DNA of 64,000 bases, from assembly GCA_964491475.1 (NCBI GenBank), contig CAZBFO010000004.1, positions 3,290 through 67,289 on the forward strand, in the 5' to 3' direction. The position numbers and the translations under genes are program-made. This document shows, piece by piece, positions 5,577 to 58,074 of this stretch. This stretch comes from an uncultured Gammaproteobacteria bacterium. Lineage in GTDB: Bacteria > Patescibacteriota > Patescibacteriia > SG8-24. The notes under the pieces are model-generated. The model was not told where the DNA came from and searched no databases. It worked only from the letters and a program-made list of their open reading frames with translations. Position 1 is the stretch's first letter. The number at the start of each line of letters is the position of its first letter.

Positions 5577-5578
5577 GG

Positions 5579-6010: not shown

Positions 6011-6117
6011 GATGTTCTCCTTGTGACGCGGCGCATCCCTCCTTGATGAGGAAAGCTGCCGGACACGAGAAGCTACCAAGAAAAGGCGCTTCCGTCAAGA
6101 CCCGCAGGACCGCAACG

Positions 6118-7312: not shown

Positions 7313-9718
<2,406 letters not shown>

Positions 9719-14344: not shown

Positions 14345-16342
14345 TTACGCCGTAAACACGAGCTTCTTCTCGCGGCGCTCTTCCTTGAATACCTCCAGGC
14401 GATCGCCGACCAGCGCCGGGCGGCGGATGGAAACCTTGAGACCGCACTCCTGGCCCATGCGGACCTCCTTGGTGTCCTGCTTGCCGGACTGCAGTTGGAG
14501 GATCTTGCCTTCGTCGACCGGGTCCGTGCCGCGGTAGACCACGACGTTGGCGCCCGGTTCCAGATGGCCGTCGGTGACGCGGCCGCCGATGACGTGGCCG
14601 GTCTTGTCGCTGCGGAAGATGGCCAGCACCTCGAGCTTGCCGAGGTCGGTGCGGATGACTTCTGCCGGCACCAGGGCCTGCAGGCGCTTCTTCACCTCGT
14701 CGAACAGCTCGTAGATGATCTTGTACTGGAGCACGTCGACCTTCTTGTCGCGGGCGTAAATCTGCGCCTCGCGCGTGACGTTGACGTTGAATGCCATGAC
14801 GACGCCGCCGGTGGCCTCTGCGCGCGAGACATCGCCGTCGGAGACGTTGCCGAGGCCGCGACCGACGATGGCCACGCCGACTTCCTCGGACTTGTATTTC
14901 TCGAGCGTGCCGACGATGGCCTCGAGCGAACCCAACGCGTCGGTTTTCAAGACGACGTTCAGGAACTTCTTGCCGCCCTCCTTTTCTTCCTCCTGCTTGG
15001 AGAACGAGGTCGGAGCCGTCTGCTTCTCGACGGTGTATTGCTTCTTGAGCTTGTTCAGGGCGCTGGCGTCTTCGGGGACCTGGACGATGTCTCCCACCTG
15101 CGGGGCCACCTTGAAGCCGATGACCTTCACCGGCGTGCCGGGGACGGCCTTTTCGACCAGCTTGCCGTTCCAATCCTTCATGGCACGGACGCGGCCGTAC
15201 AGGTTGCCGGCAATGGCCAGCTCCTGGTTGCGGCGAAGCGTGCCGGACTGCACCAAAGCCGTGGCGACCGGGCCTTCGCCCTTGTCGATGTGCGACTCGA
15301 TGATGGTGCCGATGGCCAAGCGGTCAGGGTTGGCTTTGACCTTTTCGGGGTCCAAGTCGGCTGTCAGCAAAATCATGTCGAGCAGCTGCTCCACGCCCGC
15401 ACCGGTCTTGGCAGACACCGGAACAAAGGTGACCTTGCCGCCCCATTCTTCGGGAATGACGTTCTTTTCGGACAACTGGGTCTTCACCAGCTGCAAGTCC
15501 ACGCCCGGCTTGTCCATCTTGTTGAGCGCGACGACGAAGGGAATCTTGGCGGCCTCGATGATCTTGATGACTTCGACCGTCTGGGGCTGCACGCCGTCAT
15601 CGGCGGCGACGACCAAAATGGCCACGTCGGCGACGCGCGCGCCGCGCGAGCGCATGACGGTAAAGGCCTCATGGCCCGGGGTGTCGATGAAGGTGATGTT
15701 GCGGCCGTTGCGCTCCACCTGGTACGCGCCGATGTGCTGGGTGATGCCGCCGGCTTCGCCCTTGGCGACGTTCTGGGTGCGAATCCTGTCCAACAGCGAG
15801 GTCTTGCCATGGTCGACGTGACCCATCACGACCACGACCGGCGGGCGGGGCTTGAGCTTGTGGGCTTCCTCGGCCTCCAGCATGGTCTTGAGGTCGTCAG
15901 CCGACATGCTCCCCTCTGCCTGCTGGTCCTTCTCGGCTTCCCGGCTGACGCCGTAACCTAAGTCCTCGGCCACGATGCTGGCCGTCTCGAAATCGATGCG
16001 CTCGTTGATGGTGGCGAGGATGCCGTTCTTCATCAGCTCGGCGATCACCAAGTTGAGCGGCAGCGCCATCTTGGCGGCGAAGTCGCGGACGGTGATGACC
16101 TTGGGCAGCTCGATCGATTTTACCTGCGCGATGGCCTCCTCCTTGATCTTCTCCTCCTTCTGGTACTTCACCTTGAGGCGGTCGAGCTTCCGCATCTCGG
16201 ACCACTTTTCCATGATCTTGTTGACCAGGCGGTCGTCGACCTTGATGGCCTTGCGACCGACGTCAAAACCGAGCATCGGGAGTTTTTCTCGAAGCTCTTC
16301 GGGGTTGGTGCGGAGTCGGCGGGCAAGTTCGGAGATGTTCAT
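14345..16342 (-). CDS. infB: translation initiation factor IF-2 (short form)
   Basis: 665 aa; G-domain [24 protein letters not shown]; C-terminal IF2 beta-barrel domains. Confidence 0.95.
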
Positions 16343-16439: not shown

Positions 16440-17120
16440 ATGGACGGTTTTCTCCTCATCGACAAACCGGCCGGAATCACCTCGTTCGGCGTAATCGCTA
16501 GGTTGCGCCGCATTACGGGGGTCCGCCGCATCGGCCACGCCGGCACCCTCGACCCGTTCGCCACGGGCCTTTTGATCGTGGGCGTGGGCCGAGGAGCCAC
16601 CAAGCACCTGGCCGACTACCTCGGTCAGCGCAAAACTTACGAAGCCGTGGCCGTGCTCGGCGCCACCACGGTCACCCAAGACAAGGACAGCAACGTCGTT
16701 CCCACCGAAGGCGCGACGATGCCGACCGAGGAGGAAATTCGCGCCGCGCTCCCCCGCTTCACCGGCGAACTGTCCCAAACGCCGCCGATGTTCTCGGCCA
16801 AGAAAATCGACGGCAAACGGCTGTACGAGCTGGCACGCGAAGGGGTAGAGGTAGACCGCAAGTCCGTCACCGTTACCATATACGACTTGGAAATGCTCTC
16901 GTACCAGCCGCCCAAGCTCTCCTTCCGCACGACCGTTTCTGCCGGTACCTACGTCCGCACGTTGGCGCACGACATCGGCGCAGCCCTCGGCTGTGGCGCG
17001 TACCTCGAAGCGCTCCGCCGCACCAAGATCGGCGACTATGCCGTCGAAAACGCGTCGACGCTCGATGCGCTGACCGCGGACAACTGGCAGGCGCGTCTCT
17101 TGCCGATCGTTTCGCGGTAA
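16440..17120 (+). CDS. truB: tRNA pseudouridine(55) synthase
   Basis: 226 aa; catalytic motif GHAGTLDPFATGLL; no PUA domain (short form). Confidence 0.9.
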   Translation: MDGFLLIDKPAGITSFGVIARLRRITGVRRIGHAGTLDPFATGLLIVGVGRGATKHLADYLGQRKTYEAVAVLGATTVTQDKDSNVVPTEGATMPTEEEIRAALPRFTGELSQTPPMFSAKKIDGKRLYELAREGVEVDRKSVTVTIYDLEMLSYQPPKLSFRTTVSAGTYVRTLAHDIGAALGCGAYLEALRRTKIGDYAVENASTLDALTADNWQARLLPIVSR

Positions 17121-17987: not shown

Positions 17988-19511
17988 CTAGTTCGCCAGG
18001 AAGATCGTCTTGAGCGCGTCGTACACGGGCTTCTTGCTGCCGTCGTAACGGTACATGCCGAAGAAGTTTTCGGTAGTGACCGTCGAGGTGCCCAAGTCGG
18101 TGTAGGTGTGCCAGAAGAATCCCCCGATCAGCGGGTCGGCCAAGGACAGCGACAGCGCCTCCCTGCCGATGGCCGCCTGCAGGTCCTCGCTCACGTGATC
18201 CGGGCTGTTGGCAAGGTTGTAGTCGGCGGTCGTGGCGAGCGCGCCGGGACCGTTCGTCGGAGCGCCGACCTCGGTGATCCAGATCTTCTTGGTGCCGTCG
18301 CCGTTGCCGTTCATGATGCTGCGGAGGCTGACGCTGGTACTTGACATCTGCTGCCAGGCGTTCCATTCGGCTTTATACGAAGGGAGCACCGGGAACGAGT
18401 ACGGGTGGAAGGCGACTGCATCCATCGAGGGACCGACGCCCAAGGCGTAGGCCTGGGACAGGAAGTCGCGCGGCGAAACGTCGCCGTTGCCGGTCGCGGC
18501 CGGGGCCAGACCGCCGAGCAGCACGGTTGCCGAAGGGTCGCTCTTGCGAACCGCCGGCGCCGCCAGCTTCAGCAGGGCGACGTAATCGGCGACCGCCGAA
18601 GGCGACTGCCAGAAGACGTGCACGTTCTCCTCGTTCCAAATCTCATAGGCGTGCACGCCCATCGGGGCGTAGCGAGCCGCGGCAGTGCCGGCGAATGTGG
18701 CGAACGCGGCAGGATCAGCGGGAGCGCAGCGCGGTGCCGTGCAACCCGATGCGCGAGCCCAAGCCGGCGAGTAGGCCACGACGGCCAACGGCTTCAAACC
18801 ATGCGCGATCGCGGCTTTCACGAAGGTGTCAGGGCCGGTCCAGCTGAAGGAGGCGCTGCTGGTCTGCTGCACTTCGCTCCAGTCGATGTCGAAGCGCACC
18901 CAGGTGACGCCCATCGAGACCATGTCGTTGAGGCGGTTGTTCATCTCGGTGCTCGACAGTCCCATCATGGTCGTGCCGACGGCCATGCCGAAAGGATGCG
19001 TCGAAGCGCTGGAGGCGACCAGCGTGCCGCTGATGGGAGCGGTGCCGGTGCCCGAACCGGAGGTCGGCGCCGTGTTCGTGTTGGTCGGGACGGTATTGGT
19101 ATTGGTCGGCGCCGTGTTGGCGTTGACGACGACCGTGTTGGCGTTTGCGGGAGAAGTATTCGTATTGGTCGGCGCGGGAGAGGGCGTGATCGGAGCGGTA
19201 ACGGGAGAAGTGGCGGGCTTGCGGTAACGCGTACGGGCGTATGTTGCGGCGCGCAGCACCTCTTCCTCGCTGGTGTCGAGGCCGTTCAGCCTGTCCGCCA
19301 GCTTTTTCAGCGCGGACACTTCGGTAGGAACCGCAGCCACGCTCTGGACGCGCGGCAGATCGGATACATCGGGCAGCTCGGGTGCGCGCACCGCCTGCTG
19401 AAGAAGGACGGCCACGGCCGCAATGGTAAAAAGGGCCACTAAACCGTATGCAGCCCCGTTGCGCCATCGCGTGTTGTCCGACGAACGTCGCTCTTGTGGT
19501 GTGTTTGGCAT
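17988..19511 (-). CDS. membrane-anchored glycoside hydrolase, GH5/GH39-like (PslG-like endoglycanase candidate)
   Basis: trimmed to MPNTPQERR...; N-terminal TM AAYGLVALFTIAAVAVLL; Thr/Asn/Pro repeat stalk; (beta/alpha)8 hydrolase motifs ...HAYEIWNEEN... (acid/base Glu) and ...IWITEVG... (nucleophile Glu). Confidence 0.7.
   Translation of the reverse strand: MPNTPQERRSSDNTRWRNGAAYGLVALFTIAAVAVLLQQAVRAPELPDVSDLPRVQSVAAVPTEVSALKKLADRLNGLDTSEEEVLRAATYARTRYRKPATSPVTAPITPSPAPTNTNTSPANANTVVVNANTAPTNTNTVPTNTNTAPTSGSGTGTAPISGTLVASSASTHPFGMAVGTTMMGLSSTEMNNRLNDMVSMGVTWVRFDIDWSEVQQTSSASFSWTGPDTFVKAAIAHGLKPLAVVAYSPAWARASGCTAPRCAPADPAAFATFAGTAAARYAPMGVHAYEIWNEENVHVFWQSPSAVADYVALLKLAAPAVRKSDPSATVLLGGLAPAATGNGDVSPRDFLSQAYALGVGPSMDAVAFHPYSFPVLPSYKAEWNAWQQMSSTSVSLRSIMNGNGDGTKKIWITEVGAPTNGPGALATTADYNLANSPDHVSEDLQAAIGREALSLSLADPLIGGFFWHTYTDLGTSTVTTENFFGMYRYDGSKKPVYDALKTIFLAN
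19062..19175 (-). repeat. in-frame tandem repeat encoding PTNTNT/ANANT linker
   Basis: DNA shows repeated gtgttggt/gtattggt units; translates to PAPTNTNTSPANANTVVVNANTAPTNTNTVPTNTNTAPT within the GH5-like protein. Confidence 0.7.
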
Positions 19512-19537: not shown

Positions 19538-21982
19538 TCAGGATAGCACGGCGTTTTGCCTCGATAAAGCTGCCGATTTCCGGCTTAAAACGTACAGTAT
19601 CAGGCCGCAGAGCGCCGTGATGGCGTTTCCGACGATCCAAGCGAAACCGATGCCGGCGAGGCCAAAGCGGAGGAAGGCGTTGGCAAAACCGATGAGGGCG
19701 GCAGCATACACGACGTTGGTGATGACCAAAGCTTTCAGGTTCTTGCTGATGCGGAATAGCGCCGTATAGAAGGACACGATCGCCACGGGCACGCACGCCA
19801 AGGTGATGAGGTCCAAAAAGCGAATGCCGCCGGTGCCGTAGTTCTTGCCGAACATTCGCAGCAGCCACTCGCCGAAGAGCAGCAGGAAAGCCGCGGCGGC
19901 GGCCAAGGCAGGCGCCATGATTCCGATCGCCTTTCGGATATGCCGCTTCAGTTCGGTCTGATCGTGAGAACCCTCGGCGAACAGCGAACGAGTAGTGGCC
20001 CAAGCGACGGTATAGAGCATGTTGCCTATCATCATCACGACGTAAAAATAGGCGGAGCTTGCGGGACCGAGCCTGTTGGTGATCAGAATCGGCAAATACG
20101 TCACCGGAATCAGGTTGAATGCGCCGGCGAAATAATTGCCGGCGCAGTACTTTGCCACCAGTTTTATGACACGGCCGTCCAGCCGCAACTGCGGCCGGTA
20201 TCCCATGTGCCGAATCAGCGCAGCCATGCTCAACGTGAACCCGATGACCTGCGCGAGCGCTGCGGCCAGGTAGATGCCGGTGGCGCCAAGGCTGACGAAA
20301 AACAGCGGGAACATCATCTTGGCGAAGCTGAAGATGGTGTTGATTGCCAGGGTATATTCCGCCTTGCGGTAGGCGAGGAAAACCGAATCCGTGATGATGT
20401 TCAGCGCCATCAGGATGGCGAAGAGCACGAACGCCGCGCTGTACAACGGCGACTGGCGCACGAACGTCAGGCTCGGCGAAATCAGGTGTACGAGCGCGAT
20501 GAAACCGGACGCCAGCAGGAGGGCAGTGACGCTCACCACCAAAAAGCCGGTATTGAGCTTCTGGTTGCGAGTTTCGGACGTCGGAAGGAAGCGCACGAAG
20601 GCCATGTCGAAACCGGCCAGCGAGAGCGTGGCGATCAGGTTCATGATGGCGATCAGCGTTGTCGCCACGCCGATGTCCGCCGCGCCGTACAGGCGGGCAT
20701 TGATGAGCCAGAAGAAGAAACCGAAACCGGCCATCACGGCAGTCGCAAGCATGAGGCAGAGCGAATTCCGAAACAGCACGTCAGCGGAGAGCCTTTCGAG
20801 CAAGGACGGGACGATCCGGCGCAGCCCGCCCTTTCGCCGCACGCCCGTGGCCTCAATGCAGACGGCCTCGAGTTTTTTGGTAGCGGCAAGCCAGCTGCAG
20901 CTGCGTTCGACGTGACGCCGGGCGCGCTCCCCCATCTCCTTGCGCAGGGCGGAGTCAGCAAGAAGCGGAGCGATCGCCGCGGCCAGCGCCTCTGGAGACT
21001 CCGGCTGCGCGTAAGTGACGTTGTCGCCGAACTCCTCCCGCATTCCGCCGATGTCGGCAATGACGACTGCCTTTCCGCAAGCCAAATACTCGTAGACCTT
21101 GAAGGGAGATGTCGCCCCGGCGCGTATCCCGATCGGATAACAGATGCAGATGTCCGAGCTGCCGATGATTGCCGGCACTTCGGCATGAGCGACCGGCGGA
21201 TGCAGCCCGATGCGGTCGGCGAACGGCGAAGCGGCTACGAGCGATGCGATGCGCGGGCCCTCCGGGCCTTTGCCGGTGATGGAAAATCGGACGTCCGCGC
21301 GGCCGGCGCAGACGATTTCTGCGGCTTTCACGATATGCTCCACGCCTTGCCACGAAGCAAAGCTGCCGACATAGCCTACGACGATTTCTCCGTGGGTCGG
21401 TTTTGGCATCGGCTTGAAGACGTCAGTGTCGACGCCGCTCGAAACGAAGGTCACGCGATCGGCGGGAATGCCGTAGGTTGAGATGACGTGATCGCGAATG
21501 CCGGCGGTCACGCCGATCATTCTCTGGGAGTTTCTGAAATTGAAGAGTTCAAGCGCATGAAAGACGCGCAGAGCGGACAGCAACCGGTTGACCGCGCCTT
21601 TGTTGAAGCGGGCGTCATCGCCATACCTGCTGTTCACCTCCTGAACGATAGGCACGCCGAACGCCCTGGCCACGAGGGTCGGGACGAAAAGAAGGTGGCT
21701 GTGCCGAGAATAGATGAAATCTGGACGGCGAAGAACGATTTCGACGCCGAGCCTGACGAGCAATGACAGCTGATAAAACACCGCGAGCATCGCCCGTGGC
21801 GTACGAATGAGCACCGTGTCGATCGGTGCCAGGTACGGGCGCGTACCCGTCTTCGGCGCGAACAGGACCACTCGATGGCCGAGCAGCCTGAAATTACGGC
21901 ACACCTCCAGCACGTGCACGGCCGGAGCGAAGTCGTCATTGAAGTCGAAATCGGTGGTGTAGACGATGTTCATGCGACTCAT
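19538..21982 (-). CDS. fusion protein: GT4 glycosyltransferase + MOP-superfamily (Wzx-like) polysaccharide flippase
   Basis: N-terminal ~390 aa GT-B/GT4 (…GYVGSFASWQGVEH…, EYLACGKAVVIADIGGMRE); C-terminal ~420 aa with ~12 TM helices typical of polysaccharide biosynthesis/Wzx flippases. Confidence 0.75.
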   Translation of the reverse strand: MSRMNIVYTTDFDFNDDFAPAVHVLEVCRNFRLLGHRVVLFAPKTGTRPYLAPIDTVLIRTPRAMLAVFYQLSLLVRLGVEIVLRRPDFIYSRHSHLLFVPTLVARAFGVPIVQEVNSRYGDDARFNKGAVNRLLSALRVFHALELFNFRNSQRMIGVTAGIRDHVISTYGIPADRVTFVSSGVDTDVFKPMPKPTHGEIVVGYVGSFASWQGVEHIVKAAEIVCAGRADVRFSITGKGPEGPRIASLVAASPFADRIGLHPPVAHAEVPAIIGSSDICICYPIGIRAGATSPFKVYEYLACGKAVVIADIGGMREEFGDNVTYAQPESPEALAAAIAPLLADSALRKEMGERARRHVERSCSWLAATKKLEAVCIEATGVRRKGGLRRIVPSLLERLSADVLFRNSLCLMLATAVMAGFGFFFWLINARLYGAADIGVATTLIAIMNLIATLSLAGFDMAFVRFLPTSETRNQKLNTGFLVVSVTALLLASGFIALVHLISPSLTFVRQSPLYSAAFVLFAILMALNIITDSVFLAYRKAEYTLAINTIFSFAKMMFPLFFVSLGATGIYLAAALAQVIGFTLSMAALIRHMGYRPQLRLDGRVIKLVAKYCAGNYFAGAFNLIPVTYLPILITNRLGPASSAYFYVVMMIGNMLYTVAWATTRSLFAEGSHDQTELKRHIRKAIGIMAPALAAAAAFLLLFGEWLLRMFGKNYGTGGIRFLDLITLACVPVAIVSFYTALFRISKNLKALVITNVVYAAALIGFANAFLRFGLAGIGFAWIVGNAITALCGLILYVLSRKSAALSRQNAVLS

Positions 21983-24900
21983 CGGTAAACGCGGGAATCG
22001 CCGTTGTCGTAGAGACGGTCCTTTTGCTCGTCCAGGAAGTCGACCGGATAGCTGTAGAAAAAGGAGGAGTCGTTGTAGTCCGTGGCGCTGACGCGCTTGT
22101 GGATGTTGGCGTAGCCGAGGAAGACGTAGGCGTACTTGCGCACGAGGCCCGGATAAATGTCGAAGAGCACGTTCGTGCCAGCGATGCTGCTCACCTTGCT
22201 GGAAAGAAAGCGGTCGGATTGCACGCTCGCCTGGTACTCGAAGTGCGGGTCATTCGACTTTATTTCGGAAAGCCATTCCACGCCGAGCACTTCCCCGCGA
22301 TGAAGGTAATACTCATCGTAGTAGTCTCCGGAATTGTTCAGGTGCAGCTGCGGTCCGTAGGCTCCCAACGCCTGGGTAAACACGCCGGTCGACGAGTACA
22401 GGAAGACGACCGCCATGACGGCGCCGATGCCGATCCTGACGCGATCGCTTGCGCCCAACGGCCACGCCAGGCTGCCGAGCACGATGAAGATGCCCATGAA
22501 AACCAGGGACTGTTCGAAGGCCCGCATGATGCCGTATTCGACGGAAAGCACGGGGAGAAGCACCAAGGCCAAAATGAACAGCAGGCTGGCGATCGCCATG
22601 AGACCGTATTCGAGGTCGAGCTTGCGCCGCAGGAACCGCCGACCCAGCAGGCAGGCGCCCATGCCGACGAAAATGAGGATTTGCAGCAGCTTGGCGGTGC
22701 CCTGCCTGAAATCGTAGTTGAACGCGGCCACATCGACCCCCAGCGACTGCAACCATCGTCCGACGGGCGTCAGCTCGAGGACGACCGGCTTGGAGGCGGT
22801 CACTTCGTCCTTACGGTATTCGGCCGGCGCGAAAAACGTTCCCGGCAATTCCCTGCCGCGCGCCTTCTCGACCACCTTGTTCTGATATTCGGCGAGCAGC
22901 TCGGCCGGCGTTTGGCTCTTGTGCCACGAGAAGAGGCTGTAAAGCACCGTCCCCGATTGCGCGTCCTCACGGACATTGCTGCGCATGACGGCGACGGTCT
23001 TTACGACGACGCGGTACAGGCTGTTCGAAGACGTGTCGGTCAGCACGCTGCTCCAAAGAAAGCTGGCACCGCCCAAAATGATGACGACCGGAACCGTAAT
23101 CACGTAACCCCTCGGAACCGGCCCTGACGGCGTGAGGGCGACGCCCGCCCGCTTGAACCATCCCCACTTCGCCAAAAGACGGACGATGGGCCGGGTGAAA
23201 AGCAGGATGAGCATCAGCAAGATGACCGTGTACGTGGTTGAATAGTGCGACAGCACCAAACCAAATCCCAGCGACACGAACAGCCGTCTGCGCAGCTTGA
23301 GCGAAATGTCGGTGGCGAAGGCCAAGTACGTCATTATCGCCACGAACATGAAGGCGATCTCCTGGCGGTCCAGCATGGGCATGTCCCCGAAGAAGGTCGG
23401 AAACGCCATGAAATAGATCGCGTTCATGACCGCCAGCGTCGAAGACACGAATCGGCGCGTGGTAAGGTACAGGACGCTCGGAACGGTCGCGAAGAGGATT
23501 TGAAAGAAGACCTTGTACGCGTACGGGTCGGAAAACTTGAGCGTGCGCGCAAACATCACCGGCAGAATCGTGATGCTGATGCAGGCGTTGTAGGCGTCGT
23601 GAAAGTTCGCGATGGACCAGTAGCCGTTATGTTTCGTCAGCTGGAATACGCGGAATTCGCGCTGCACGTCGTGGCCGGTCGTAAACCAGCCGCGAAGCGA
23701 GGTCATGAAGAGCAGGGAGAGCCCCATGAAGAACAGGGCCGTCGCGACGGCGTCGGGATGAATGCGCTTTGCGCGCCACATCAGAAGGCCCGCGTACGCC
23801 CCGATGCCCACGAGCATCGCGTAGGTCAGCCACGAGCTGCCGCCGTTGTTGAGCAGGATGGCCCCGAAGGCGCTCATCGCCACGAATACCGACGGGAAAA
23901 ACGCCAAAACGACATCACCGGTTTTTCCCAGGAACGAGAAATCGAATGGCACGTATTCGACCTTCGCGCGCAGGATGCAGACGATGGCCAGGGCATAGAC
24001 CAGCAACGTGGTCTCAATCAATATGTACGGTCCGTACAGCGGTTGCGCGATGCCCAGCAACGGAAAGACGGTGTTGCCCAAAAGGCCCGCCAGCATGAGC
24101 TCAAGAACGCCGAAACCGATGACCAGGCTCAAGCTGCCCCACAACGGCATGCTCTTGAGGCGGATGGCCAAGACCGTCAAATAGCCCGGCACCAGAACCA
24201 GCGAAAGGAACCCGACGATGTTCAGCATCTGATAACTGTTGAACTGCAAAGCCGACAGCACCGTAAAAGCCGACCAGGCCAGCATGGCCGCGGCCAGGCC
24301 GCCGAATGCAGGAGCGCGGTCGAGGACGGCGGGACGCGCCTTGGCGGCAACGCCGTCATACGCTGCTTGAATCCGCCCGACGAAAACGTCGACGGTATGG
24401 AGTCTCGCCTTTGCCGCGCTGGCGCGCGACAAATCCGAAAGCAGGCGCTTCTTCTCCCAAAGCATCTCGATGACCTGGACGAACTGCTCGACATACGGCT
24501 CGTTGACCAGGATGCCCGTGTCGCCCAACAGGCCCGCAATGCCGCTGACGTTGGTGCCTACGACCGGCAACCCTCCGGCCATCGCCTCCAAGACGACCAG
24601 AGGCGTACCGCCTTCGCGATCGGAAGAAATCAGCAGCATGTCGTTCGATGCGTGATAGGCCTTCATCTCGGCGTCATTCTTGCTGCCGACGAACGTCACG
24701 TTGTGACGAGAGTGCTCGGCCACCAGCTTTTCGAGCGCCCGCCGCTCTTCACCGTCGCCCACGACCGTCAGATGCGCCGGTACTTTCAGTTGCGCAACGG
24801 CCTCGATCAGGCGTTCGACGCGTTTCTGGCGCGCCAGACGCCCGACGTACAAAAGGCGGAAGACGTCCTCGTGCGGCACGTAATCGCGCCGTACGAAAAA

Positions 24901-25461
24901 GTCCGCTTTGACGGCGTTAGGGATGATCGAGATGCGATCGGACCGCACGCCGTATTTTTTTTGCAGGACGGACGCCTGATCCTCTGCGCAGACGATGATC
25001 CGGCTGGCACCGCGGAACAGCGGCACCCACGCAAGTCGCTTGTAGAGGAGAAACAGCGTGCCGAACGGGCCAGAGGGACCGACATCGAGATGAAAGTGAA
25101 CCACGTACCGGAGATTCCTCACCCGAGCGGCAAGCATGACCAGCTCCGGCCAATAGGCCTGCGAAAGATGCAGATGCAAAATGCTGTCCTTCGGGAGCTT
25201 CATGAGCTCCCAAAAAAGTCCCGGAGCAAAAGGCGTGTGCGCGAATTCGAAGCTTGCCAGCCGCTTGACGGTCAGGTTCCCGACGGTATTGCTGCCGCGC
25301 CGATCGCCTTGCGAGGACGCCAAAACGAGGACGCGATGGCCCGCCGCGGCCATGGCCTCCGCGATCGTGCGCGCCACGCGCTCCAAGCCGCCGACGTACG
25401 GCGGATAGTGCGGGCTAAGATGTACCAAAAGCGGCTGCTTGCTCATATTCACGAAAGGCAA
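21979..25461 (-). CDS. fusion protein: GT4 glycosyltransferase + ~770-aa polytopic membrane domain of unknown function (GT-C-like/DUF2206-like candidate)
   Basis: N-terminal GT4 (…LLYVGRLARQKRVERL…, PLVVLEAMAGGLPVVGTNVSGIAG); then >15 predicted TM helices and a C-terminal ~120-aa soluble domain. Confidence 0.7.
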   Translation of the reverse strand: MPFVNMSKQPLLVHLSPHYPPYVGGLERVARTIAEAMAAAGHRVLVLASSQGDRRGSNTVGNLTVKRLASFEFAHTPFAPGLFWELMKLPKDSILHLHLSQAYWPELVMLAARVRNLRYVVHFHLDVGPSGPFGTLFLLYKRLAWVPLFRGASRIIVCAEDQASVLQKKYGVRSDRISIIPNAVKADFFVRRDYVPHEDVFRLLYVGRLARQKRVERLIEAVAQLKVPAHLTVVGDGEERRALEKLVAEHSRHNVTFVGSKNDAEMKAYHASNDMLLISSDREGGTPLVVLEAMAGGLPVVGTNVSGIAGLLGDTGILVNEPYVEQFVQVIEMLWEKKRLLSDLSRASAAKARLHTVDVFVGRIQAAYDGVAAKARPAVLDRAPAFGGLAAAMLAWSAFTVLSALQFNSYQMLNIVGFLSLVLVPGYLTVLAIRLKSMPLWGSLSLVIGFGVLELMLAGLLGNTVFPLLGIAQPLYGPYILIETTLLVYALAIVCILRAKVEYVPFDFSFLGKTGDVVLAFFPSVFVAMSAFGAILLNNGGSSWLTYAMLVGIGAYAGLLMWRAKRIHPDAVATALFFMGLSLLFMTSLRGWFTTGHDVQREFRVFQLTKHNGYWSIANFHDAYNACISITILPVMFARTLKFSDPYAYKVFFQILFATVPSVLYLTTRRFVSSTLAVMNAIYFMAFPTFFGDMPMLDRQEIAFMFVAIMTYLAFATDISLKLRRRLFVSLGFGLVLSHYSTTYTVILLMLILLFTRPIVRLLAKWGWFKRAGVALTPSGPVPRGYVITVPVVIILGGASFLWSSVLTDTSSNSLYRVVVKTVAVMRSNVREDAQSGTVLYSLFSWHKSQTPAELLAEYQNKVVEKARGRELPGTFFAPAEYRKDEVTASKPVVLELTPVGRWLQSLGVDVAAFNYDFRQGTAKLLQILIFVGMGACLLGRRFLRRKLDLEYGLMAIASLLFILALVLLPVLSVEYGIMRAFEQSLVFMGIFIVLGSLAWPLGASDRVRIGIGAVMAVVFLYSSTGVFTQALGAYGPQLHLNNSGDYYDEYYLHRGEVLGVEWLSEIKSNDPHFEYQASVQSDRFLSSKVSSIAGTNVLFDIYPGLVRKYAYVFLGYANIHKRVSATDYNDSSFFYSYPVDFLDEQKDRLYDNGDSRVYR

Positions 25462-27731
25462 TCGGAAATGAGCGCTCGGTACTGCGCCACCTGCGCGGCC
25501 ATGCCGTACTTGGTGCGGGCCTTGCGGACGCCGTTGGCGGCGAGATGCCGGGCAAAGGGCTCGTCGCTCAACACGCGGCGAATGGCGGCGGCAAGCGCGG
25601 ACTCGTCGCCGGGAGTCACCAGCAGGCCGTCTTCGCCGTCGGCGATGACCTGCGGGATGCCGCCGACGTTCGAACCGATGACCGGGCGGCCGCTGGCCAT
25701 GGCCTCGATGAGAACGATGCCGAACGCTTCGGCGCCCGTGAGCGACGGCAGCGTCAACGCGCTGCTGCGGCGGTACGCCCGCACCAGTTCGTCGCCGAGC
25801 ATCGGACCGGAAAAGATGACGTTCCGCTCGATGCCGAGATCCTTGGCCATGGCACGATAGCGCGGCACGGCGTCTCCGCCGCCGACCAATTCCAATTTGG
25901 CGTCGGGAATCGACCGCGCGACGAGCTTCATGGCGCGAAGCAGCGCCGCAATCCCCTTCCAGGAAGAGGTCTCCTCGATGCGGCCCACGAACAGCACCGT
26001 CTTGCTGCCGGACGGCAGCGGGGTAGCGGCGAAACGTTCATCATCCACGGAGGGAGGGATGTCGTGCACCTTGGCGCGGAACTCCGGAAAGGCGCTCTCG
26101 AAATATTTGGTCGAAATGGCGACGATCGCCCGCGCCTTCTTGAACAGCAGGCGCAGCACGTACTGTTCGTACGCCCAAATCACGGCATCGATCGGGTAGC
26201 GGCCCTTGCGCATGCTGCCGGCGTGATACGTCACCAAGACGGGCGTCTGGCCTGCGGCCATGGCAGCCACGTCGGCGATGAAGGGCACCGGGGAGTGCGC
26301 GTGAACGAGTTGCGGCTTGGCGAATCGGAAGAGCTTGCGCAGCCAGAAGTACCACATCGGATTGACCGGCGTGTTCGACACGCGGAAGGCCGTCGGCAGA
26401 CGGTGCACGGTCATGCCGTCGATGACGTCCTGGCGGTAACCGGCGCCGTCGTGATTGCTGGTAATCACGCTGACGTCGCAGTCGCCGGATCGCTGCAGCC
26501 GGCGGGAAAGCTCGTAGGAGTAATTCTCGAGGCCTCCGATCTTCGGGTAGAAGTACGGAACGACCACGGCAATGCGCGTTTTGCCCGGAACCCCTTCCGG
26601 AAGGGCGCCGCGCAAAAACGCCTCGTACGCCGCGGCGCGCGATTCCCACATGTAGGCGGCGCCGATCTTGGCGCGTCCGGCGGCTCCCATCGCGGCGGCC
26701 AGGGCGTCGTCCTTGAGCAACCGCGTTATCCGTGCGGCAAAGGCGGGCGCGTCTCCCGGAGCGCAGGTGAAACCGTTTACGCCGTCCTCCACCAGACCGC
26801 TGCCGATTTTGCCGCAGACCACGGGCAGCCCGCAGCTCATTGCCTCGAGCACCACCATCGAGAAGCTGTCGTTGTGCGTCGGCAGGCAGAACACGCGTGA
26901 CTCCTGATATGCGCGCACCAATGCGGCCCCTTCGGCCTTGCCGTAAAAACGCACGGCCCCCGCAAGACCGAGCAGGCGTATTCGCTCCTCATGTTCCGAA
27001 CGCATGTCGCCGTCTCCGACCACCAGCAGGCGTGCCGCAGGAATCTCGGCGGCCACCGGCACGAAGGCGTCGATCAGCGTTTGCAGGCCCTTGTGCTGTT
27101 CCGAACGTCCCAAGCCGCCCACGAACAGCACCGTCGGTTCGGGTTTCCGGCTGCCGGCCGCAGGAACGAAAACGGAACCGTCGACGGCGGGCGTGACGGT
27201 CGTGCTCTTGTACCTGTAGGCGCGCAAAAAGTCGTTGCGCACGGCATCCGACGAGCAGATAATGCGGTCGGCGCGGCGCAGCAGCAGGGGCAGGAGCACT
27301 TTTTCGTATGCCCAAATGACCGGATCGACCCAGCGGTTGCCCTTGCGCATGCTCAAGCCGTGATAGGTCACGACGACCGGCGTCTTGCCGGCGACGAGCG
27401 AGGCGATGTCACCGATGCCGGGGACGGGCATGTGCACGTTGATGACGGCAGGGCGAAGTTCCCGGATGATGCGCCTGATCTTGAACGGCCACAGGAACGC
27501 AAAAGGCATGTTCGACCATTTACAGGCGTAGGCCAGCTTATGCACGGTGATGCCGTCGACCGCGGCGATCTCGTCCTTGCCGAAACGGGCGCCGGATGTG
27601 ACAAAGGTGACCTTCCAACCATGCGTTGCCCGCAGCCGCTTGGCCATTGCCAGGGCATAACGCTCCAACCCTCCGCCGTTCGGCGGAAAGTAAGGCGTGA
27701 CGAACAGGATGTTCGTTTGTTCCTGGCGCAT
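25449..27731 (-). CDS. tandem double GT4 glycosyltransferase
   Basis: two complete GT-B/GT4 units (…VLFVGGLGRSEQHKGL…SMVVLEAMSCGLPVV… and …VLFVGRIEETSSWKGI…GIVLIEAMASGRPVIGSNVGGIP…). Confidence 0.8.
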   Translation of the reverse strand: MRQEQTNILFVTPYFPPNGGGLERYALAMAKRLRATHGWKVTFVTSGARFGKDEIAAVDGITVHKLAYACKWSNMPFAFLWPFKIRRIIRELRPAVINVHMPVPGIGDIASLVAGKTPVVVTYHGLSMRKGNRWVDPVIWAYEKVLLPLLLRRADRIICSSDAVRNDFLRAYRYKSTTVTPAVDGSVFVPAAGSRKPEPTVLFVGGLGRSEQHKGLQTLIDAFVPVAAEIPAARLLVVGDGDMRSEHEERIRLLGLAGAVRFYGKAEGAALVRAYQESRVFCLPTHNDSFSMVVLEAMSCGLPVVCGKIGSGLVEDGVNGFTCAPGDAPAFAARITRLLKDDALAAAMGAAGRAKIGAAYMWESRAAAYEAFLRGALPEGVPGKTRIAVVVPYFYPKIGGLENYSYELSRRLQRSGDCDVSVITSNHDGAGYRQDVIDGMTVHRLPTAFRVSNTPVNPMWYFWLRKLFRFAKPQLVHAHSPVPFIADVAAMAAGQTPVLVTYHAGSMRKGRYPIDAVIWAYEQYVLRLLFKKARAIVAISTKYFESAFPEFRAKVHDIPPSVDDERFAATPLPSGSKTVLFVGRIEETSSWKGIAALLRAMKLVARSIPDAKLELVGGGDAVPRYRAMAKDLGIERNVIFSGPMLGDELVRAYRRSSALTLPSLTGAEAFGIVLIEAMASGRPVIGSNVGGIPQVIADGEDGLLVTPGDESALAAAIRRVLSDEPFARHLAANGVRKARTKYGMAAQVAQYRALISDCLS

Positions 27732-27742
27732 ATCGTGAATGA

Positions 27743-28441
27743 TTACGGCAGCTCCGCGTTAATGACGCAGCGCACGTCCGAGGCGGCGGCAATGTGCGCG
27801 AAGACGCGTTCCAGCCTTCGCCAATCGCCGTTCTTTTCGATTTCCCAAGAATGGCCCCAGAGGTGGAACGCGGAACCTTCGGCACAGGCTTTGTCGAAAA
27901 GCGCATTGGCCAGTTTGTCCCAGTTGAGATAGCAGCGCAGGAACTTGCCGGGGCCGACGGCACGCAGGATGGCGAGAGCGTCGGACCAATGTCGGTAGGC
28001 GTGAACGGTCGTGGTCAGCGCGAAGCGGTTGGCATCGGCCGCAGGACCGAAGCGGCGCACGGTGCGTGCCAGGGTGAACCCCGCCTCTGCCGCCATGGCT
28101 TCGTGCCGAGCTGAAAAATCCCCGCAGGGATAGCAGAACGAGGTGACCGGCCTGCCGGTGACGCGTTCGAGGTATTCGCGCGACTCGCGCATTTCCTCCA
28201 GTGCCCGATCATCGGGAATACGCGAAATGCGCGGATGGGTCATAGTATGCGCGCCGATCTCGGCCTCCGCGGCCAACGCGCGAATCTGCTGGTCGGTCAG
28301 GCGGTCATCCGGAGCCACTTCCCTGCTCCGCGGAGCCACGTAGAACGTCCCCTTAAGGCCGTATTTCCGCAGCAAAGCAAGCACTTTCAGATCGAGCTTG
28401 TGCCCGTCATCCCAGCTTGTCGTCACTGCGGTTCGTTTCAT
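27743..28441 (-). CDS. polysaccharide deacetylase (NodB/CE4 family)
   Basis: TSWDDGH motif (Asp-Asp metal/catalytic pair), later His residues; 232 aa. Confidence 0.8.
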   Translation of the reverse strand: MKRTAVTTSWDDGHKLDLKVLALLRKYGLKGTFYVAPRSREVAPDDRLTDQQIRALAAEAEIGAHTMTHPRISRIPDDRALEEMRESREYLERVTGRPVTSFCYPCGDFSARHEAMAAEAGFTLARTVRRFGPAADANRFALTTTVHAYRHWSDALAILRAVGPGKFLRCYLNWDKLANALFDKACAEGSAFHLWGHSWEIEKNGDWRRLERVFAHIAAASDVRCVINAELP

Positions 28442-28446
28442 AGGTT

Positions 28447-30294
28447 TCAGCCGAATACGCGCTGCAGGCTGCCGGCGACCTTCTGCCAGTCGTAGCGCTC
28501 GATGTCCTGACGGGGGCGCAAGTCGTCGCGCGTGGCGAGCACCTGGAGCATCTTCGAAGCCAGGGCGTCGACGTCGGGAGTCACCAGAAACCCGTTGACC
28601 CCTTCGCTGATCAGTTCCTTGGCGGCGTTGTTTTCATGTTCGGTGGTTATGACCGGAATGTCGGCGGCGTTCGCCTCGACCACCACCAGGCCGAAGCCTT
28701 CGCGGACGGACGGCAGCACCAGCATCTTCGACGCCTTCATCTTGGCGTAGACGTCCTCTGCGCCTTCGATGGCGCCGTAGAAGGTCACGTTTTCCTCCAG
28801 GCCGAGCTCGGCAACCAGCGCCTGCAGCTTCTGCCGCTCCGGACCGACGCCGACGATGGCCGTGCGGAACTGCGGATGAATCATCTTCACCGTCGCGGTG
28901 GCGCGAATCAGCAGGTCGACGTTCTTGTGGTCGATCAGTCGGCCGACGTAAATGGCGTCGCTGCCTTCCGCCGCGGGAACGGCGGCAGTGATACTCTCGA
29001 GGTCGGCGCCCAGCGGCACCGTCACGATTTCACAGCGCACGTTCTCCAGGCGCAGGCGGCGCGTGGTGTGCTCGGAGTTGGAGATGATGACGTCCGGCAG
29101 GCGCATGGAAAGGCTCTCCACGGCGTGACCGAGGAGGCCGGAGACGCCGCCCAGATAGTGCTTCCAATAGGCGCGTCCCCAGACTTCATGCCAGGTGGCG
29201 TGCAGCTTTTTGCCGCGCACCCAAGTGGCCAGGCGGGCGCCGAGCAGCGGGAAGAACGGCATGTGGTCGACGTCGATCACGTCAAACTTGGCGAAGGCCA
29301 GCTTCAGCGAGGCCAGCCCGAAGCACAGCGCCTGCAAAATGGAGCGGCGGCCGTTCACGTACATCGGACGATGGCCGCAGAGCGCGTGGTAGCGGATGCC
29401 GTCCACGACCTTGATCTTCGGGCCTTCCCACCACTGCATGGTGTAGATGCGCACTTCGCAGTCGTCGGAGACCATGCGGCGGGCGATCTCGTACAGGCGC
29501 TTCTCCTTGCCGCCCTGATGGAACGGCATGACGGCGTCGGACACGAACGCCAGGGTGCGGACGTCCGGCTTTTCCGGTTCCCAAACGAGCACGCGCAGGA
29601 ACATCGACATGATGCGCGCGCCGTCGGTGAGCGGGTTCAGGTTGCTTTCGCCGGCGCGGGCGTCGTAGCTGATGGGGACGCAGTAAATCTCCTCGCCCAG
29701 CCTGGCCATCTTGGTGACCATCTCCATCTCGATCGAGAAGTCGGTCGACTTGAGGTGCGGGGCGAGACGGAGCAGCGACTCGCGCTTCCAGGCGAAGTAG
29801 CCGGTCAGCACGTCGGTCACGTTGGCGCCATAAAAATAGCGGACCAGGTGCGAGAAGATCCAGTTGCCGATGCGGTTGACGGCGCCCATCGAACCTTCGG
29901 AAATGCGGCCCGCGAGGCGCGAACCGATGACCACGCTGCAAAAGCCGGAATCGAGCGGTTCAACCAGGCGCAGCACCTCTTCGGGGCGGTAGGTGTCGTC
30001 GCCGTCGAGCATCACCACGTAGTCGGCGTCGTTCTGGGCGACGTACTCGAAGCCGTGGCGGATGGCGTTGCCCTTGCCCTTCTTGTCTTCGGACAGCACC
30101 GTGGCGCCGTTCTCGCGGGCGATCTCGGCGGTACGGTCCTTGGAGTTGTTGTCGATGACGATGACCTCGAGCTCGTAGCCGAAAGCCGCAAGGCGCTCCT
30201 TGGGGAACTTGCGGATGACCGAAGCGATGCCCTGCTCTTCGTTGTAGCAAGGGATCAGGACCGCGATTTTCTTTTTCACGTCCGGTTGATGCAT
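28447..30294 (-). CDS. fusion protein: GT2 (polyprenyl-phosphate sugar synthase, DPM1/GtrB-like) + GT4 glycosyltransferase
   Basis: N-terminal GT-A: IPCYNEE, VIDNNSKDRT, VVMLDGDDT (DxD); C-terminal GT-B/GT4: …AIYVGRLIDHKNVDLL…GLVVVEANAADIPVITT…. Confidence 0.8.
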   Translation of the reverse strand: MHQPDVKKKIAVLIPCYNEEQGIASVIRKFPKERLAAFGYELEVIVIDNNSKDRTAEIARENGATVLSEDKKGKGNAIRHGFEYVAQNDADYVVMLDGDDTYRPEEVLRLVEPLDSGFCSVVIGSRLAGRISEGSMGAVNRIGNWIFSHLVRYFYGANVTDVLTGYFAWKRESLLRLAPHLKSTDFSIEMEMVTKMARLGEEIYCVPISYDARAGESNLNPLTDGARIMSMFLRVLVWEPEKPDVRTLAFVSDAVMPFHQGGKEKRLYEIARRMVSDDCEVRIYTMQWWEGPKIKVVDGIRYHALCGHRPMYVNGRRSILQALCFGLASLKLAFAKFDVIDVDHMPFFPLLGARLATWVRGKKLHATWHEVWGRAYWKHYLGGVSGLLGHAVESLSMRLPDVIISNSEHTTRRLRLENVRCEIVTVPLGADLESITAAVPAAEGSDAIYVGRLIDHKNVDLLIRATATVKMIHPQFRTAIVGVGPERQKLQALVAELGLEENVTFYGAIEGAEDVYAKMKASKMLVLPSVREGFGLVVVEANAADIPVITTEHENNAAKELISEGVNGFLVTPDVDALASKMLQVLATRDDLRPRQDIERYDWQKVAGSLQRVFG

Positions 30295-30738: not shown

Positions 30739-31189
30739 AACGGCCCGAAAAATAAGGCGAAAGACGACGCCTACACTTACCACGAATTTGTCGCTGTGTC
30801 AAGCCAATCCTTGGTCGTGTTGACCCTCCCAAACCCCCGTGCTACCTTGAAAACAGGTACGTTCATATTCAATCCTGCGAGAAATGACCGAAGGGTGGCC
30901 GCAAACTGCAGTTCTGGCGTGGCAACCCTGTGACGATATGAGGAATTCGACCAATGGTAATCCTGAATGGGCACACGCGGTAATCGAGACGTTCGTCCCG
31001 GGCGCACTTGCCTCGGAAAAGACGGACGGTGAGCGTGACGTAAACAGCCCGGAACAAGCAAAAACAAACGCCTGATACCCTTCAGGCGTGCTTGCCATTG
31101 CGACAACCTGCATATCGCGCACGCCTTCCGGCGTCGCTTGCCGTCGCTGACGGCACGGCCGAAACCTCGCAGGAATGTAGAGGTTTTTT

Positions 31190-32779
31190 ATGTCCCCAGT
31201 TATCGCCGCAATCGTCGCGCTCGCCGTGGGCGCAGGCATCGGTTACGTCTACCGCAAGTCGGTGGCGCTCCAGCAGACCGATTCCGCAGAGTCCAAAGCT
31301 ACCAAAATGCTGGCCGAAGCCGAGGCCAAAGCGCTCAAGCTGACCGCCGAAGCCGAAGCCAAAGTCTCCACGGCCTCCAAAGAGGCCGAAGCCAAGAGCC
31401 AGCAGATGATCATCGAGGCCCAAGGCAAGGCCATCAAGATGAACGAGGAATCCAAGATCGAGGACGAGAACCGCCGAAAGGAATTGCGCGTCATCCAGGC
31501 CAAACTGGCCAAAATCGAGGAGGATCTGGCCGTGAAGATTTCCAACGCCCAGCGCAAGAGCGAGGACCTCGACGGCAAGCTCGCCAAAGCCGCCGAAACG
31601 CAGAAGGAAGTCGACGAGCTGAAGGCCCAACAGGTCACCAAGCTCGAACAGGTTGCCTCGCTCTCGCGCGACGAAGCCAAGGAAATCCTGTTCAAGGAAG
31701 TCGAAGGCCTGGCTGCCGAGGAGTTCGACAGCCGCATGCGCAAGATCGAGAACACCACGGTCGAAGAGCTCGAAAAGAAGTCTCGCGCCCTGCTCGGCCT
31801 GGTCATTCAGCGCCTGGCTTCGTCCCACTCGGTCGACACCACCACCACGGCGGTCCCGCTCCCCAGCGACGACATGAAGGGCCGTATCATCGGCAAGGAA
31901 GGCCGCAACATCAAGGCGGTCGAACACATGACCGGCTGCGAAATCATCGTCGACGACACCCCAGGCGCCATCACCATCTCCGGCTTCTCCCCCATCCGCC
32001 GCCAAGTCTGCAAGCTGGCCCTGCTCAAGCTGATCGAGGACGGCCGCATCCACCCCGGACGCATCGAAGAAGCCGTCGAGGACGCCAAGAAGGACTTGGC
32101 CGTCGACATCAAGAAGGCCGGCGAAGAAGCGCTCATCGAGCTGGGCGTACCGGTCCACTCTCTGGACCCCAAGCTGGTCCAAATCCTCGGCCGCCTCAAG
32201 TACCGCACCAGCTACGGCCAGAACGTGCTGCGGCACTCCATGGAAGTGGCGCAGCTGTCCGTGCTGATGGCCCAGGAGCTCCACGCTGACGTGAAGGTCT
32301 GCCGGCTGGGTGGCATCCTCCACGACATCGGCAAGGCCGTGGACCACGACGTGCAGGGCGCCCATCCGGAAATCGGCTACAACATCATGAAGAAGTTCGG
32401 CCTGCCGGAAGAAATCTGCTACCAGTCGATCGGCCACCACGAGGACAAGCCGAAGACGCTTGAAGCCATGATCGTGAAGGCCGCCGACGCCATCTCCGGC
32501 GCGCGCCCCGGCGCCCGCAAGGACACCTACGAGCTGTACGTGCAGCGGCTCGAGGAACTCGAGAGCACCGCTTCCAGCTTCCCCGGCGTCGACAAGGTCT
32601 ACGCCATCCAGGCCGGCCGCGAAGTGCGCGTCTTCGTCCAACCGAAGATGGTGGACGACTTCGGCGCCTACCGCCTGGCCCGCGACATCGCCAAGAAGAT
32701 CGAATCCGAACTGAAGTACCCCGGCGAGATTCGCGTGAACGTGATTCGCGAGACTCGCGTGGTGGAGTACGCGAGATAA
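31190..32779 (+). CDS. rny: ribonuclease Y
   Basis: 529 aa; N-terminal TM, long coiled coil, KH domain (IIGKEGRNIK), HD domain (…HDIGK…, …GHHED…). Confidence 0.9.
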   Translation: MSPVIAAIVALAVGAGIGYVYRKSVALQQTDSAESKATKMLAEAEAKALKLTAEAEAKVSTASKEAEAKSQQMIIEAQGKAIKMNEESKIEDENRRKELRVIQAKLAKIEEDLAVKISNAQRKSEDLDGKLAKAAETQKEVDELKAQQVTKLEQVASLSRDEAKEILFKEVEGLAAEEFDSRMRKIENTTVEELEKKSRALLGLVIQRLASSHSVDTTTTAVPLPSDDMKGRIIGKEGRNIKAVEHMTGCEIIVDDTPGAITISGFSPIRRQVCKLALLKLIEDGRIHPGRIEEAVEDAKKDLAVDIKKAGEEALIELGVPVHSLDPKLVQILGRLKYRTSYGQNVLRHSMEVAQLSVLMAQELHADVKVCRLGGILHDIGKAVDHDVQGAHPEIGYNIMKKFGLPEEICYQSIGHHEDKPKTLEAMIVKAADAISGARPGARKDTYELYVQRLEELESTASSFPGVDKVYAIQAGREVRVFVQPKMVDDFGAYRLARDIAKKIESELKYPGEIRVNVIRETRVVEYAR

Positions 32780-32920
32780 GCGCGGCAGGAAAAGCGCTCC
32801 GTAATGGGGCGTTTTTTCGTACCGCCTTCGGGGCCGATCAGTCTTGACTTCAACGGCAAAACGGAGCATGCTCCATGGTCGCCGTCGCCACTTTGGCACG
32901 GCGCGACAAGGAGGCATGCA

Positions 32921-33916: not shown

Positions 33917-33923
33917 GTCGCGA

Positions 33924-33955
33924 GCCGGTCTGGCATCATGTCGGACCGGTTTTTC
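33924..33955 (+). terminator. rho-independent terminator
   Basis: stem ccggtc / gaccgg followed by TTTTTC just after stop of 32921..33916. Confidence 0.4.
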
Positions 33956-34043
33956 ATGTGTTGGCGGTTTTTTGTTCCCCAATGGCCCGACCTCCAAGTC
34001 ACCGTATTTCCACCGTCCGAAAAGGGCGTAATAGTGCTAACTG

Positions 34044-41754: not shown

Positions 41755-41830
41755 TGGTGGATTGGCTGGGGATCGAACCCAGGACCAAACGCTTAAGAGG
41801 CGCTTGCTCTACCAGCTGAGCTACCAATCC
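41755..41830 (-). tRNA. tRNA-Lys (anticodon CUU), CCA encoded
   Basis: reverse complement folds as cloverleaf: acceptor GGATTGG/CCAATCC, D-arm GCTC/GAGC, anticodon stem AGCGC/GCGTT loop CTCTTAA (CUU), T-arm CCTGG-TTCGATC-CCCAG, discriminator A, genomic CCA. Confidence 0.9.
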
Positions 41831-57953: not shown

Positions 57954-58074
57954 ACCGCCATCTCCCCTATACTCCCACAGACTTTAATTCAGTCATTCTC
58001 GAGGCCTGTCTGTGGCTTCGGGAGCTCCATGGTCTGCTTATGCGGGCGACGGGGTTAAGCGATTTTTTTCGTAT

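Follow-up and report, generated by a model that had tools for sequence, protein, structure and literature searches.

Can the completion of a membrane-bound glycan and its export be brought together in a single protein? The question is raised by a gene in a 64,000-nucleotide stretch of DNA (here called the window: positions 3,290 to 67,289 of contig CAZBFO010000004.1, GenBank assembly GCA_964491475.1) from an uncultured and probably Patescibacteria-type bacterium, in which a glycosyltransferase of the GT4 family and a Wzx-like flippase of the MOP family are encoded one after the other in the same reading frame (19538-21982, minus strand). An initial annotation of the window had proposed that this protein would couple the last sugar addition directly to the translocation of a lipid-linked oligosaccharide. 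It appears likely from the analyses described here that the gene specifies a bifunctional membrane protein of a conserved, Patescibacteria-type surface-glycan cluster, in which the GT4 enzyme is tethered to the flippase and a late glycosylation takes place beside export.

The Fused Reading Frame

The fused gene consists of a single frame of 814 codons that begins with ATG, has no internal stops and ends with the stop codon at 19538-19540; its start shares four nucleotides (ATGA) with the stop of the gene upstream. Exact copies of the fused protein are found in two Logan assemblies, SRR12313479 (on a contig of 19.4 kb) and SRR12313480 (on a contig of 5.6 kb), and also on an NCBI contig of 132,653 bp. 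The two Logan contigs come from different, separately assembled runs with consecutive accessions, and they are 100% identical to the window across 16,254 and 5,575 bases, respectively, with the junction between the two domains inside the identical segment in each case. Because the DNA is the same in both, a one-off error of assembly or base calling is unlikely, and the GT4-flippase fusion is real as far as the sequence data go. The three records are probably samples of one population. The single 814-residue chain that the initial annotation had described is thus present as one unbroken frame, and both of its domains are recognizable by Pfam matches, homologues and AlphaFold2 models.

The Glycosyltransferase Domain

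The N-terminal half of the protein (residues 1-380; 20843-21982, minus strand) is a GT4 glycosyltransferase domain of the GT-B, retaining type, which we refer to as GT4e. It is identified by two Pfam families, an orthologue profile, sequence motifs and its modelled fold. PF13439 (Glyco_transf_4) matches residues 21-187 with an E-value of 5.9e-17 (62.6 bits, as compared to a cut-off of 28.5) and PF00534 (Glycos_transf_1) matches residues 197-356 with an E-value of 1.3e-20 (74.1 bits, cut-off 26.4), the two families together spanning residues 20-374 of the fused protein. A profile made from the GT4e orthologues matches the solved GT4 enzymes MshA, PimA, BshA, PglA and WaaG with E-values from 3e-42 to 3e-16, those for the first four lying between 3e-42 and 1e-30. 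In the full-length AlphaFold2 model, residues 1-379 show the alternation of strands and helices of two Rossmann-like domains, with a pLDDT (predicted local distance difference test score) that is mostly above 90. Pfam matches above the gathering scores and a beta/alpha model over these residues agree with the earlier description of this half as a cytoplasmic GT-B enzyme.

The nearest relatives of the domain are stand-alone proteins of 367-406 amino acids that are 37-44% identical to it, and its mean identity with its orthologues (0.41, range 0.39-0.48) is not unusually low, its divergence from them being no greater than their divergence among themselves. Alignment A4 shows that the clade motifs VGYVGS(F/L)xxWQG and TSPFKVYEYLACG have been retained and that Glu298, which lies in the C-domain and is a candidate for the second glutamate of the EX7E motif, is invariant. 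The usual donor-phosphate motif of GT4 enzymes is the basic GR...KG. At the corresponding place (residues 204-214) the entire GT4e orthologue clade reads GS(F/L)xxWQG, which is therefore a trait of the clade and not a product of decay in the fusion; it may reflect an unusual donor or mode of donor binding in these enzymes.

The Flippase Domain

The C-terminal half (residues 390-814; 19541-20815, minus strand) consists of an amphipathic helix at residues 390-399 followed by 12 transmembrane (TM) helices, and is assigned to the Wzx-type flippases of the MOP/PST group on the basis of the PF01943 and PF13440 matches of its homologues, its AlphaFold2 model and the resemblance of that model to WzxE. 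The lone sequence is a borderline case: residues 382-814 match PF01943 (Polysacc_synt) over profile positions 2-254 of 274 with an E-value of 0.0015 and a score of 18.4 bits, below the cut-off of 28.2; SpoVB is also matched weakly, below threshold, and no PDB chain was matched by the flippase-family sequence profile. The family to which this half belongs is easier to recognize. Database searches gave 74 homologues that are 27-55% identical to it, most of them with precomputed PF01943 and/or PF13440 matches and most of them stand-alone proteins of about 415 amino acids that are annotated as oligosaccharide flippases or O-antigen/teichoic acid export proteins; stand-alone "oligosaccharide flippase" proteins that score above the Pfam cut-off are 40-55% identical to the window sequence. 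When alignment A1, which comprises the C-terminal half and 39 homologues at 24-54% identity, was scanned with Pfam, PF01943 was found in 36 of its 40 rows and PF13440 in 34. In comparison with its orthologues the flippase half has a mean identity of 0.49 (range 0.49-0.60), and family-conserved residues are kept in both halves of the fused protein.

An AlphaFold2 model of the C-terminal half, built on alignment A1, is all-helical, with a pLDDT of 92.8 and a pTM (predicted template-modelling score) of 0.88. The best match of this model in a Foldseek comparison with the PDB is WzxE (9g9p_A; E-value 1.3e-9, TM-scores 0.75/0.79 over 418 columns); MATE transporters and MurJ structures rank next. The 12 helices of the model form the two six-helix bundles of the MOP fold. 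WzxE, which flips lipid III in E. coli (PDB 9G9P/9G9N; PMC11706664), shares with the window flippase the 12-TM MOP fold, the two bundles and TM-scores of 0.75-0.79, and WzxE and the Wzx/PST flippases in general share with it cytoplasmic termini and a gene located within a glycan-assembly cluster. Sequence identity between WzxE and the window flippase is only about 16%, and WzxE lacks what sets the window protein apart, namely a GT4 domain of 380 amino acids attached covalently to TM1. The earlier proposal of a 12-TM, polysaccharide-flippase-like domain accordingly holds up in the family alignment, the model and the top fold match; the comparison with MOP-family profiles that it had called for is borderline for the lone sequence and positive by way of the homologues and the fold.

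When the helices are delimited according to the model, 22 lysine and arginine residues fall on the predicted cytoplasmic side of the flippase domain versus six on the outside. Both termini of the domain are thus predicted to be cytoplasmic, which is consistent with WzxE, whose N- and C-termini both lie in the cytoplasm (PMC11706664). [quoted passage not shown]

The Junction Between the Domains

The boundary between the halves, which had been estimated to lie near nucleotide 20800, can be placed close by, at 20816-20842 (minus strand), where residues 381-389 (VRRKGGLRR) form a linker that is marked by low pLDDT and by the stops and starts of stand-alone orthologues. In the full-length AlphaFold2 model (pLDDT 92.8, pTM 0.67) the closing helix of the GT-B fold occupies residues 364-379, pLDDT falls below 50 at residues 383-389, a short helix follows at 390-399 and TM1 begins at 402. 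The model predicts that some 7-10 disordered residues tether an intact GT4 enzyme to an intact flippase, at the cytoplasmic N-terminus (TM1) of the latter. When placed in alignment A4, the stand-alone GT4 orthologues terminate at window codons 380-384; the stand-alone flippase homologues begin at codons 386-391, with one at 398. Because these stops and starts map to the linker, it appears to derive from a spacer that was only a few codons long. Two combined alignments, A2 and A3, were dropped on account of misplaced GT4 homologues and were replaced by alignment A5. Codon 383 is CGA, a single transition away from TGA, and the fusion would have arisen through the loss of the GT4 stop codon.

So neat a boundary also suits a different account, in which the stop was lost only very recently, or only through a sequence error, and in which two proteins are still made or needed, with the flippase being translated from an internal start such as the in-frame GTG at codon 381. 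In its favor, the junction coincides with the points at which the stand-alone orthologues stop and start, codon 383 is one transition removed from a stop, the GTG is preceded at a distance of 8 nucleotides by GAGG, and the architecture is a singleton. Against these points stand the identity of the DNA in two separately assembled read sets and on the NCBI contig, the lack of any ATG, GTG or TTG at codons 386-391, the zone in which the flippase homologues begin, and the fact that stable fusions of the same flippase clade are common elsewhere (see below). The GAGG carries no weight: no Shine-Dalgarno motif is recognizable before the six genes of the cluster in which the fused gene lies (starts at 19511, 21982, 25446, 27731, 28441 and 30294), and similar 4-mers occur by chance at 3 of the 65 in-frame, start-capable codons. 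GTG-381 was therefore rejected as evidence of an internal start, and we consider it improbable that the fusion is a recent or artefactual loss of a stop.

The Gene Cluster and Its Relatives

Six genes that run in the same direction, with the fused gene in fifth place, are located between the gene for RNase Y and those for TruB and IF-2. On the minus strand, the first of these genes encodes a GT2-GT4 fusion of 615 amino acids (28447-30294; PF00535 and the GT4 families), the second a CE4 polysaccharide deacetylase of 232 amino acids (27743-28441; PF01522) whose translation lacks a signal peptide, and the third a tandem GT4-GT4 protein of 760 amino acids (25449-27731) with two stretches of each GT4 Pfam family. 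The fourth gene, directly upstream of the fusion, encodes a GT4-DUF2206 membrane protein of 1155 amino acids (21979-25446; GT4 families and PF09971), and the sixth, directly downstream, a membrane-anchored, GH5-like glycoside hydrolase of 507 amino acids (17988-19511), which is recognized from the gene call and a weak Cellulase match (E-value 1.7e-5) and has an N-terminal TM anchor followed by a low-complexity linker rich in threonine, asparagine and proline (TNTNTSPANANT...TNTNTVPTNTNTAP). Four successive genes of the cluster (21979-30294 and the fused gene) are fusions, namely GT2-GT4, GT4-GT4, GT4-DUF2206 and GT4-flippase. Relatives have these domains on separate proteins or in other combinations, as in the CE4-GT4 protein of locus L003 and the GT4-GT4-DUF2206 protein (1512 amino acids) P0162.

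The DUF2206 protein is the sole large, outside-facing membrane protein of the cluster. Many of its homologues also carry PF13231 (PMT_2, a GT-C family); judging from these sequence matches, it is probably a GT-C-type transferase, and the matches suggest that DUF2206 is an outside-acting glycosyltransferase that uses polyprenyl-linked substrates. Our literature search found no paper on DUF2206. At least 12 of the 120 best matches are likewise GT4-DUF2206 fusions (about 1150 amino acids).

The cluster is conserved in metagenome-assembled genomes (MAGs) of Saccharimonadia, Adlerbacteria and other Patescibacteria. We compared ten related loci (L003, L005, L008, L009, L010, L013, L014, L017, L046 and L054), in which the order is GH5-like hydrolase (minus strand), flippase (plus), a variable enzyme (minus), DUF2206 protein (minus) and GT4 enzymes (minus), with a CE4 gene (minus) detected in three of the ten. 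The variable slot holds a pyruvyl transferase in L003 and a TupA-like ATP-grasp protein together with a glycosyltransferase in L005. In four of these loci (L009, L013, L046 and L054, from Saccharimonadia and Adlerbacteria MAGs) the flippase is abutted by an orthologue of GT4e (34-40% identity, E-values from 1e-72 to 1e-95). The orthologous GT4 and flippase genes are direct neighbors within the same cluster, as in the window; unlike in the window, they are separate and lie on opposite strands, converging tail to tail. The co-directional, fused flippase is the only departure of the window from the layout of its relatives. In a further locus, L011, the flippase is co-directional too, and a pyruvyl transferase is fused to its N-terminus at the same position in the cluster. 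The window arrangement would have arisen when the flippase gene was first turned to be co-directional with the GT4 gene, and the GT4 stop was then lost across a spacer of 3-8 codons. A search around the flippase segment for inverted repeats, as the footprint of an inversion, gave only short, imperfect matches that are probably due to chance.

The GH5-like gene adjoins the flippase gene in all of the related loci and is duplicated in some of them (L011 and L054). Many flippases of the clade reach about 700 amino acids, or 1059 in L013, through a conserved C-terminal extension of about 270-600 amino acids (L013, L014, L015, L017, L046 and L054; P0008, P0010, P0022 and P0034); in L013, L046 and L054, three of the four loci with an orthologue of GT4e beside the flippase, it is an unannotated segment that is absent from the window protein. 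The extension has no Pfam match, and the idea that the roughly 290 additional residues of the 700-residue flippases correspond to the TupA-like ATP-grasp protein encoded beside the flippase in L005 was ruled out when no blastp match was found between them. The extension is an unannotated cytoplasmic domain.

Neither a priming phosphoglycosyl transferase of the WecA or WbaP type, sought by Pfam in the cluster genes and 29 other open reading frames (ORFs) of the window, nor Wzy (Wzy_C) or Wzz/PCP proteins were found among the scanned ORFs. Because these three were sought there and not found, the cluster does not appear to specify a canonical Wzx/Wzy pathway, and it differs from the WzxE system both in this respect and in having a GT-C-like DUF2206 protein; the priming transferase may be encoded elsewhere in the genome. 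The cluster bears a closer resemblance to systems in which a flipped intermediate is transferred by a GT-C enzyme.

These absences also lend themselves to a reading in which the fusion is real, the GT4 enzyme is not the last to act and what the flippase moves is not a finished repeat unit. The MOP domain would then feed a simple lipid-linked sugar or glycolipid to the DUF2206 protein, much as in three-component systems of a GT2 enzyme, a flippase and a GT-C transferase, or in glycolipid export. The PMT_2 matches of the DUF2206 homologues, the GT2 domain with which the cluster opens and the presence of the lipid-acceptor enzymes PimA and PimB among the GT4 relatives would all fit such a system. 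Set against it are the seven cytoplasmic glycosyltransferase domains (one GT2 and six GT4) and the cytoplasmic deacetylase, which point to an oligosaccharide that is built before it is flipped, and the best fold match, WzxE, which is a flippase of oligosaccharide-lipids. The flippases that move small sugars in such systems (GtrA, ArnE/F) are not known to belong to the MOP group, which also counts against it. On balance we regard this alternative as rather unlikely, although clearly less so than a recent loss of the stop codon.

Enzyme-Flippase Fusions in Other Genomes

The initial annotation had called fusions of this kind rare, and this is correct only in part. When 1.84 billion cluster representatives were scanned exhaustively with HMMER and the best 150 matches were examined, the only full-length match with the GT4 domain preceding the flippase was the window protein itself; four flippase-GT4 fusions in the opposite order were also obtained. 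These four metagenomic proteins (P0076/P0219, P0085, P0113 and P0142) resemble the window protein in combining a flippase of the same clade (33-40% identity) with a GT4 domain, and differ from it in that the GT4 domain follows TM12, on the cytoplasmic tail at the C-terminus, and the linkers are longer. One of them, P0076 (836 amino acids), has a domain of the same GT4 clade (35% identity, E-value 4e-55) fused in reverse order. Fusions of the P0076 type and the window fusion are independent events. Automatic annotation at JGI already gives the reverse-order proteins a double function, as [quoted passage not shown].

Among 80 species-representative loci of the clade, 13 have a flippase with an additional domain, which in none of the 13 is a GT4 domain. 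The known partners include a GT2 domain preceding the flippase (P0190), a pyruvyl transferase preceding it (L011/P0078) or following it (P0108, P0124 and P0138), an AMP-binding enzyme preceding it in proteins of about 940 amino acids from Ktedonobacteria (L067 and L086, including the complete genome AP024096), an exosortase preceding it in DPANN archaea (L029, L030 and L042, from Woesearchaeota and Nanoarchaeota MAGs) and a hexapeptide acyltransferase following it (P0066-68). As in the window protein, one of the cytoplasmic ends of the flippase bears an enzyme or a processing domain in each of these fusions, and the L011 fusion occupies the identical position in the cluster; they differ from the window protein in the chemistry of the partner, and none has a member of the GT4e clade at its N-terminus. 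What is new in the window is therefore the order and the partner, while the fusion of an enzyme to a flippase of this clade is itself a recurrent and uncharacterized arrangement. In the searchable literature we found nothing relevant on natural Wzx-glycosyltransferase fusions or on glycan clusters of Saccharibacteria, and no paper in which any enzyme-flippase fusion of this clade is described or tested, in keeping with the earlier statement that no biochemically characterized case was known.

The window fusion could have a more mundane origin. Small, streamlined genomes may simply fuse adjacent genes of a pathway, in which case the tether would provide co-expression and recruitment to the membrane and there would be no channelling or gating of the substrate. 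The four successive fusion genes of the cluster are what one would expect of such a tendency, as are the splitting and recombination of the same domains in relatives and a linker that is short and disordered, with no predicted interface between the domains. It is less easily squared with the choice of partners, which are repeatedly variable decorating enzymes encoded beside the flippase, joined to it in either order and in distant lineages. We view a neutral or economic origin as a serious minority possibility, the least improbable of the alternatives to a tether that holds a late glycosylation beside export.

A Possible Role for the Tethered Enzyme

That GT4e would act late, beside the flippase, remains the reading that we favor, and several observations weigh against it. 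The C-terminal half taken alone scores below the PF01943 cut-off. The pTM of 0.67 for the full-length protein means that the geometry of the GT4 domain relative to the flippase is only loosely modelled, and alignment A5, made with MAFFT, is partly misaligned at the GT4 C-terminus. The flippase may be translated separately from an internal start, the fused protein is known from a single population (two runs with consecutive accessions) and no second protein with this domain order was among the 150 matches examined. To these must be added the priming transferase, Wzy and Wzz, for which the scanned ORFs gave no match.

Under the favored reading, a lipid-linked glycan would be assembled at the inner membrane face by GT2 and GT4 enzymes of the cytoplasm together with the CE4 deacetylase, and the tethered GT4 enzyme, which is variable between lineages and probably late-acting, would add its sugar next to the opening of the flippase to the cytoplasm. 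TM1-2 and TM7-8 line the central cavity of WzxE (PMC11706664). The flippase would then turn the product outward, where the GT-C-like DUF2206 protein would transfer or extend the glycan and the anchored GH5-like enzyme would trim it. The fusion would impose a 1:1 stoichiometry and hold the modification step beside the export step. The translocation of a lipid-linked oligosaccharide by the flippase domain is suggested by the genomic context, the position of GT4e as the last-acting enzyme by the location of its gene in the variable slot, and a coupling of the last sugar addition to translocation, as had been proposed at the outset, is plausible in view of gene position and the pattern of fusion partners.

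Transfer of glycosyl residues and membrane translocation are also combined in one polypeptide by BcsA, hyaluronan synthase and MurJ proteins with accessory domains. In the synthases a GT2 domain with its own TM channel extrudes a growing polymer; the window protein is instead a GT-B enzyme tethered to an alternating-access flippase for lipid-linked glycans. How Wzx proteins recognize finished units, and whether they act in complexes with completing glycosyltransferases, is still argued from genetics and not from isolated complexes. It is tempting, if rather doubtful, to extend the favored reading to a general rule, in which Wzx-type flippases would physically touch whichever cytoplasmic enzyme acts last and the tether on TM1, at the entrance of the cavity, would serve as a completion checkpoint that passes only finished lipid-linked units to the flippase. 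If this were true, the window protein would be a natural, covalently locked complex of a glycosyltransferase and Wzx for structural and kinetic studies of how Wzx proteins select their substrates.

Other Features of the Window

The remainder of the window encodes mainly housekeeping functions, including ComEC (3996-6215), leucyl-tRNA synthetase (LeuRS, 7313-9718), IF-2 (14345-16342), TruB (16440-17120), a histidine kinase (39044-41602), a type II/IV secretion ATPase (44966-46045), GyrA (52316-54808) and an S1 protein (58012-59202). The only Rfam matches in the window are two tRNA genes, at 41758-41830 and 44827-44898, both on the minus strand. Long antisense ORFs are frequent across the window, the GC content of which is 62%. 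One of these, of 971 amino acids at 31082-33997 on the minus strand, matches no family and runs antisense to the gene for RNase Y (31190-32779, plus strand; 529 amino acids, as called in L001); the ORF is probably spurious, a product of high GC content.

Significance

Taken alone, the window protein is a fusion of well-known families in one lineage and gives a modest hint that a late step of glycan assembly is tied to export. Natural fusions of this sort are Rosetta-stone evidence for contacts between glycosyltransferases and Wzx flippases, and the window offers a single-chain version of such a pair that could be expressed, split and compared. More broadly, it draws attention to a glycan cluster that is widespread in Patescibacteria and DPANN-like organisms and has gone unstudied; the episymbiotic way of life of these organisms is mediated by their cell surfaces.

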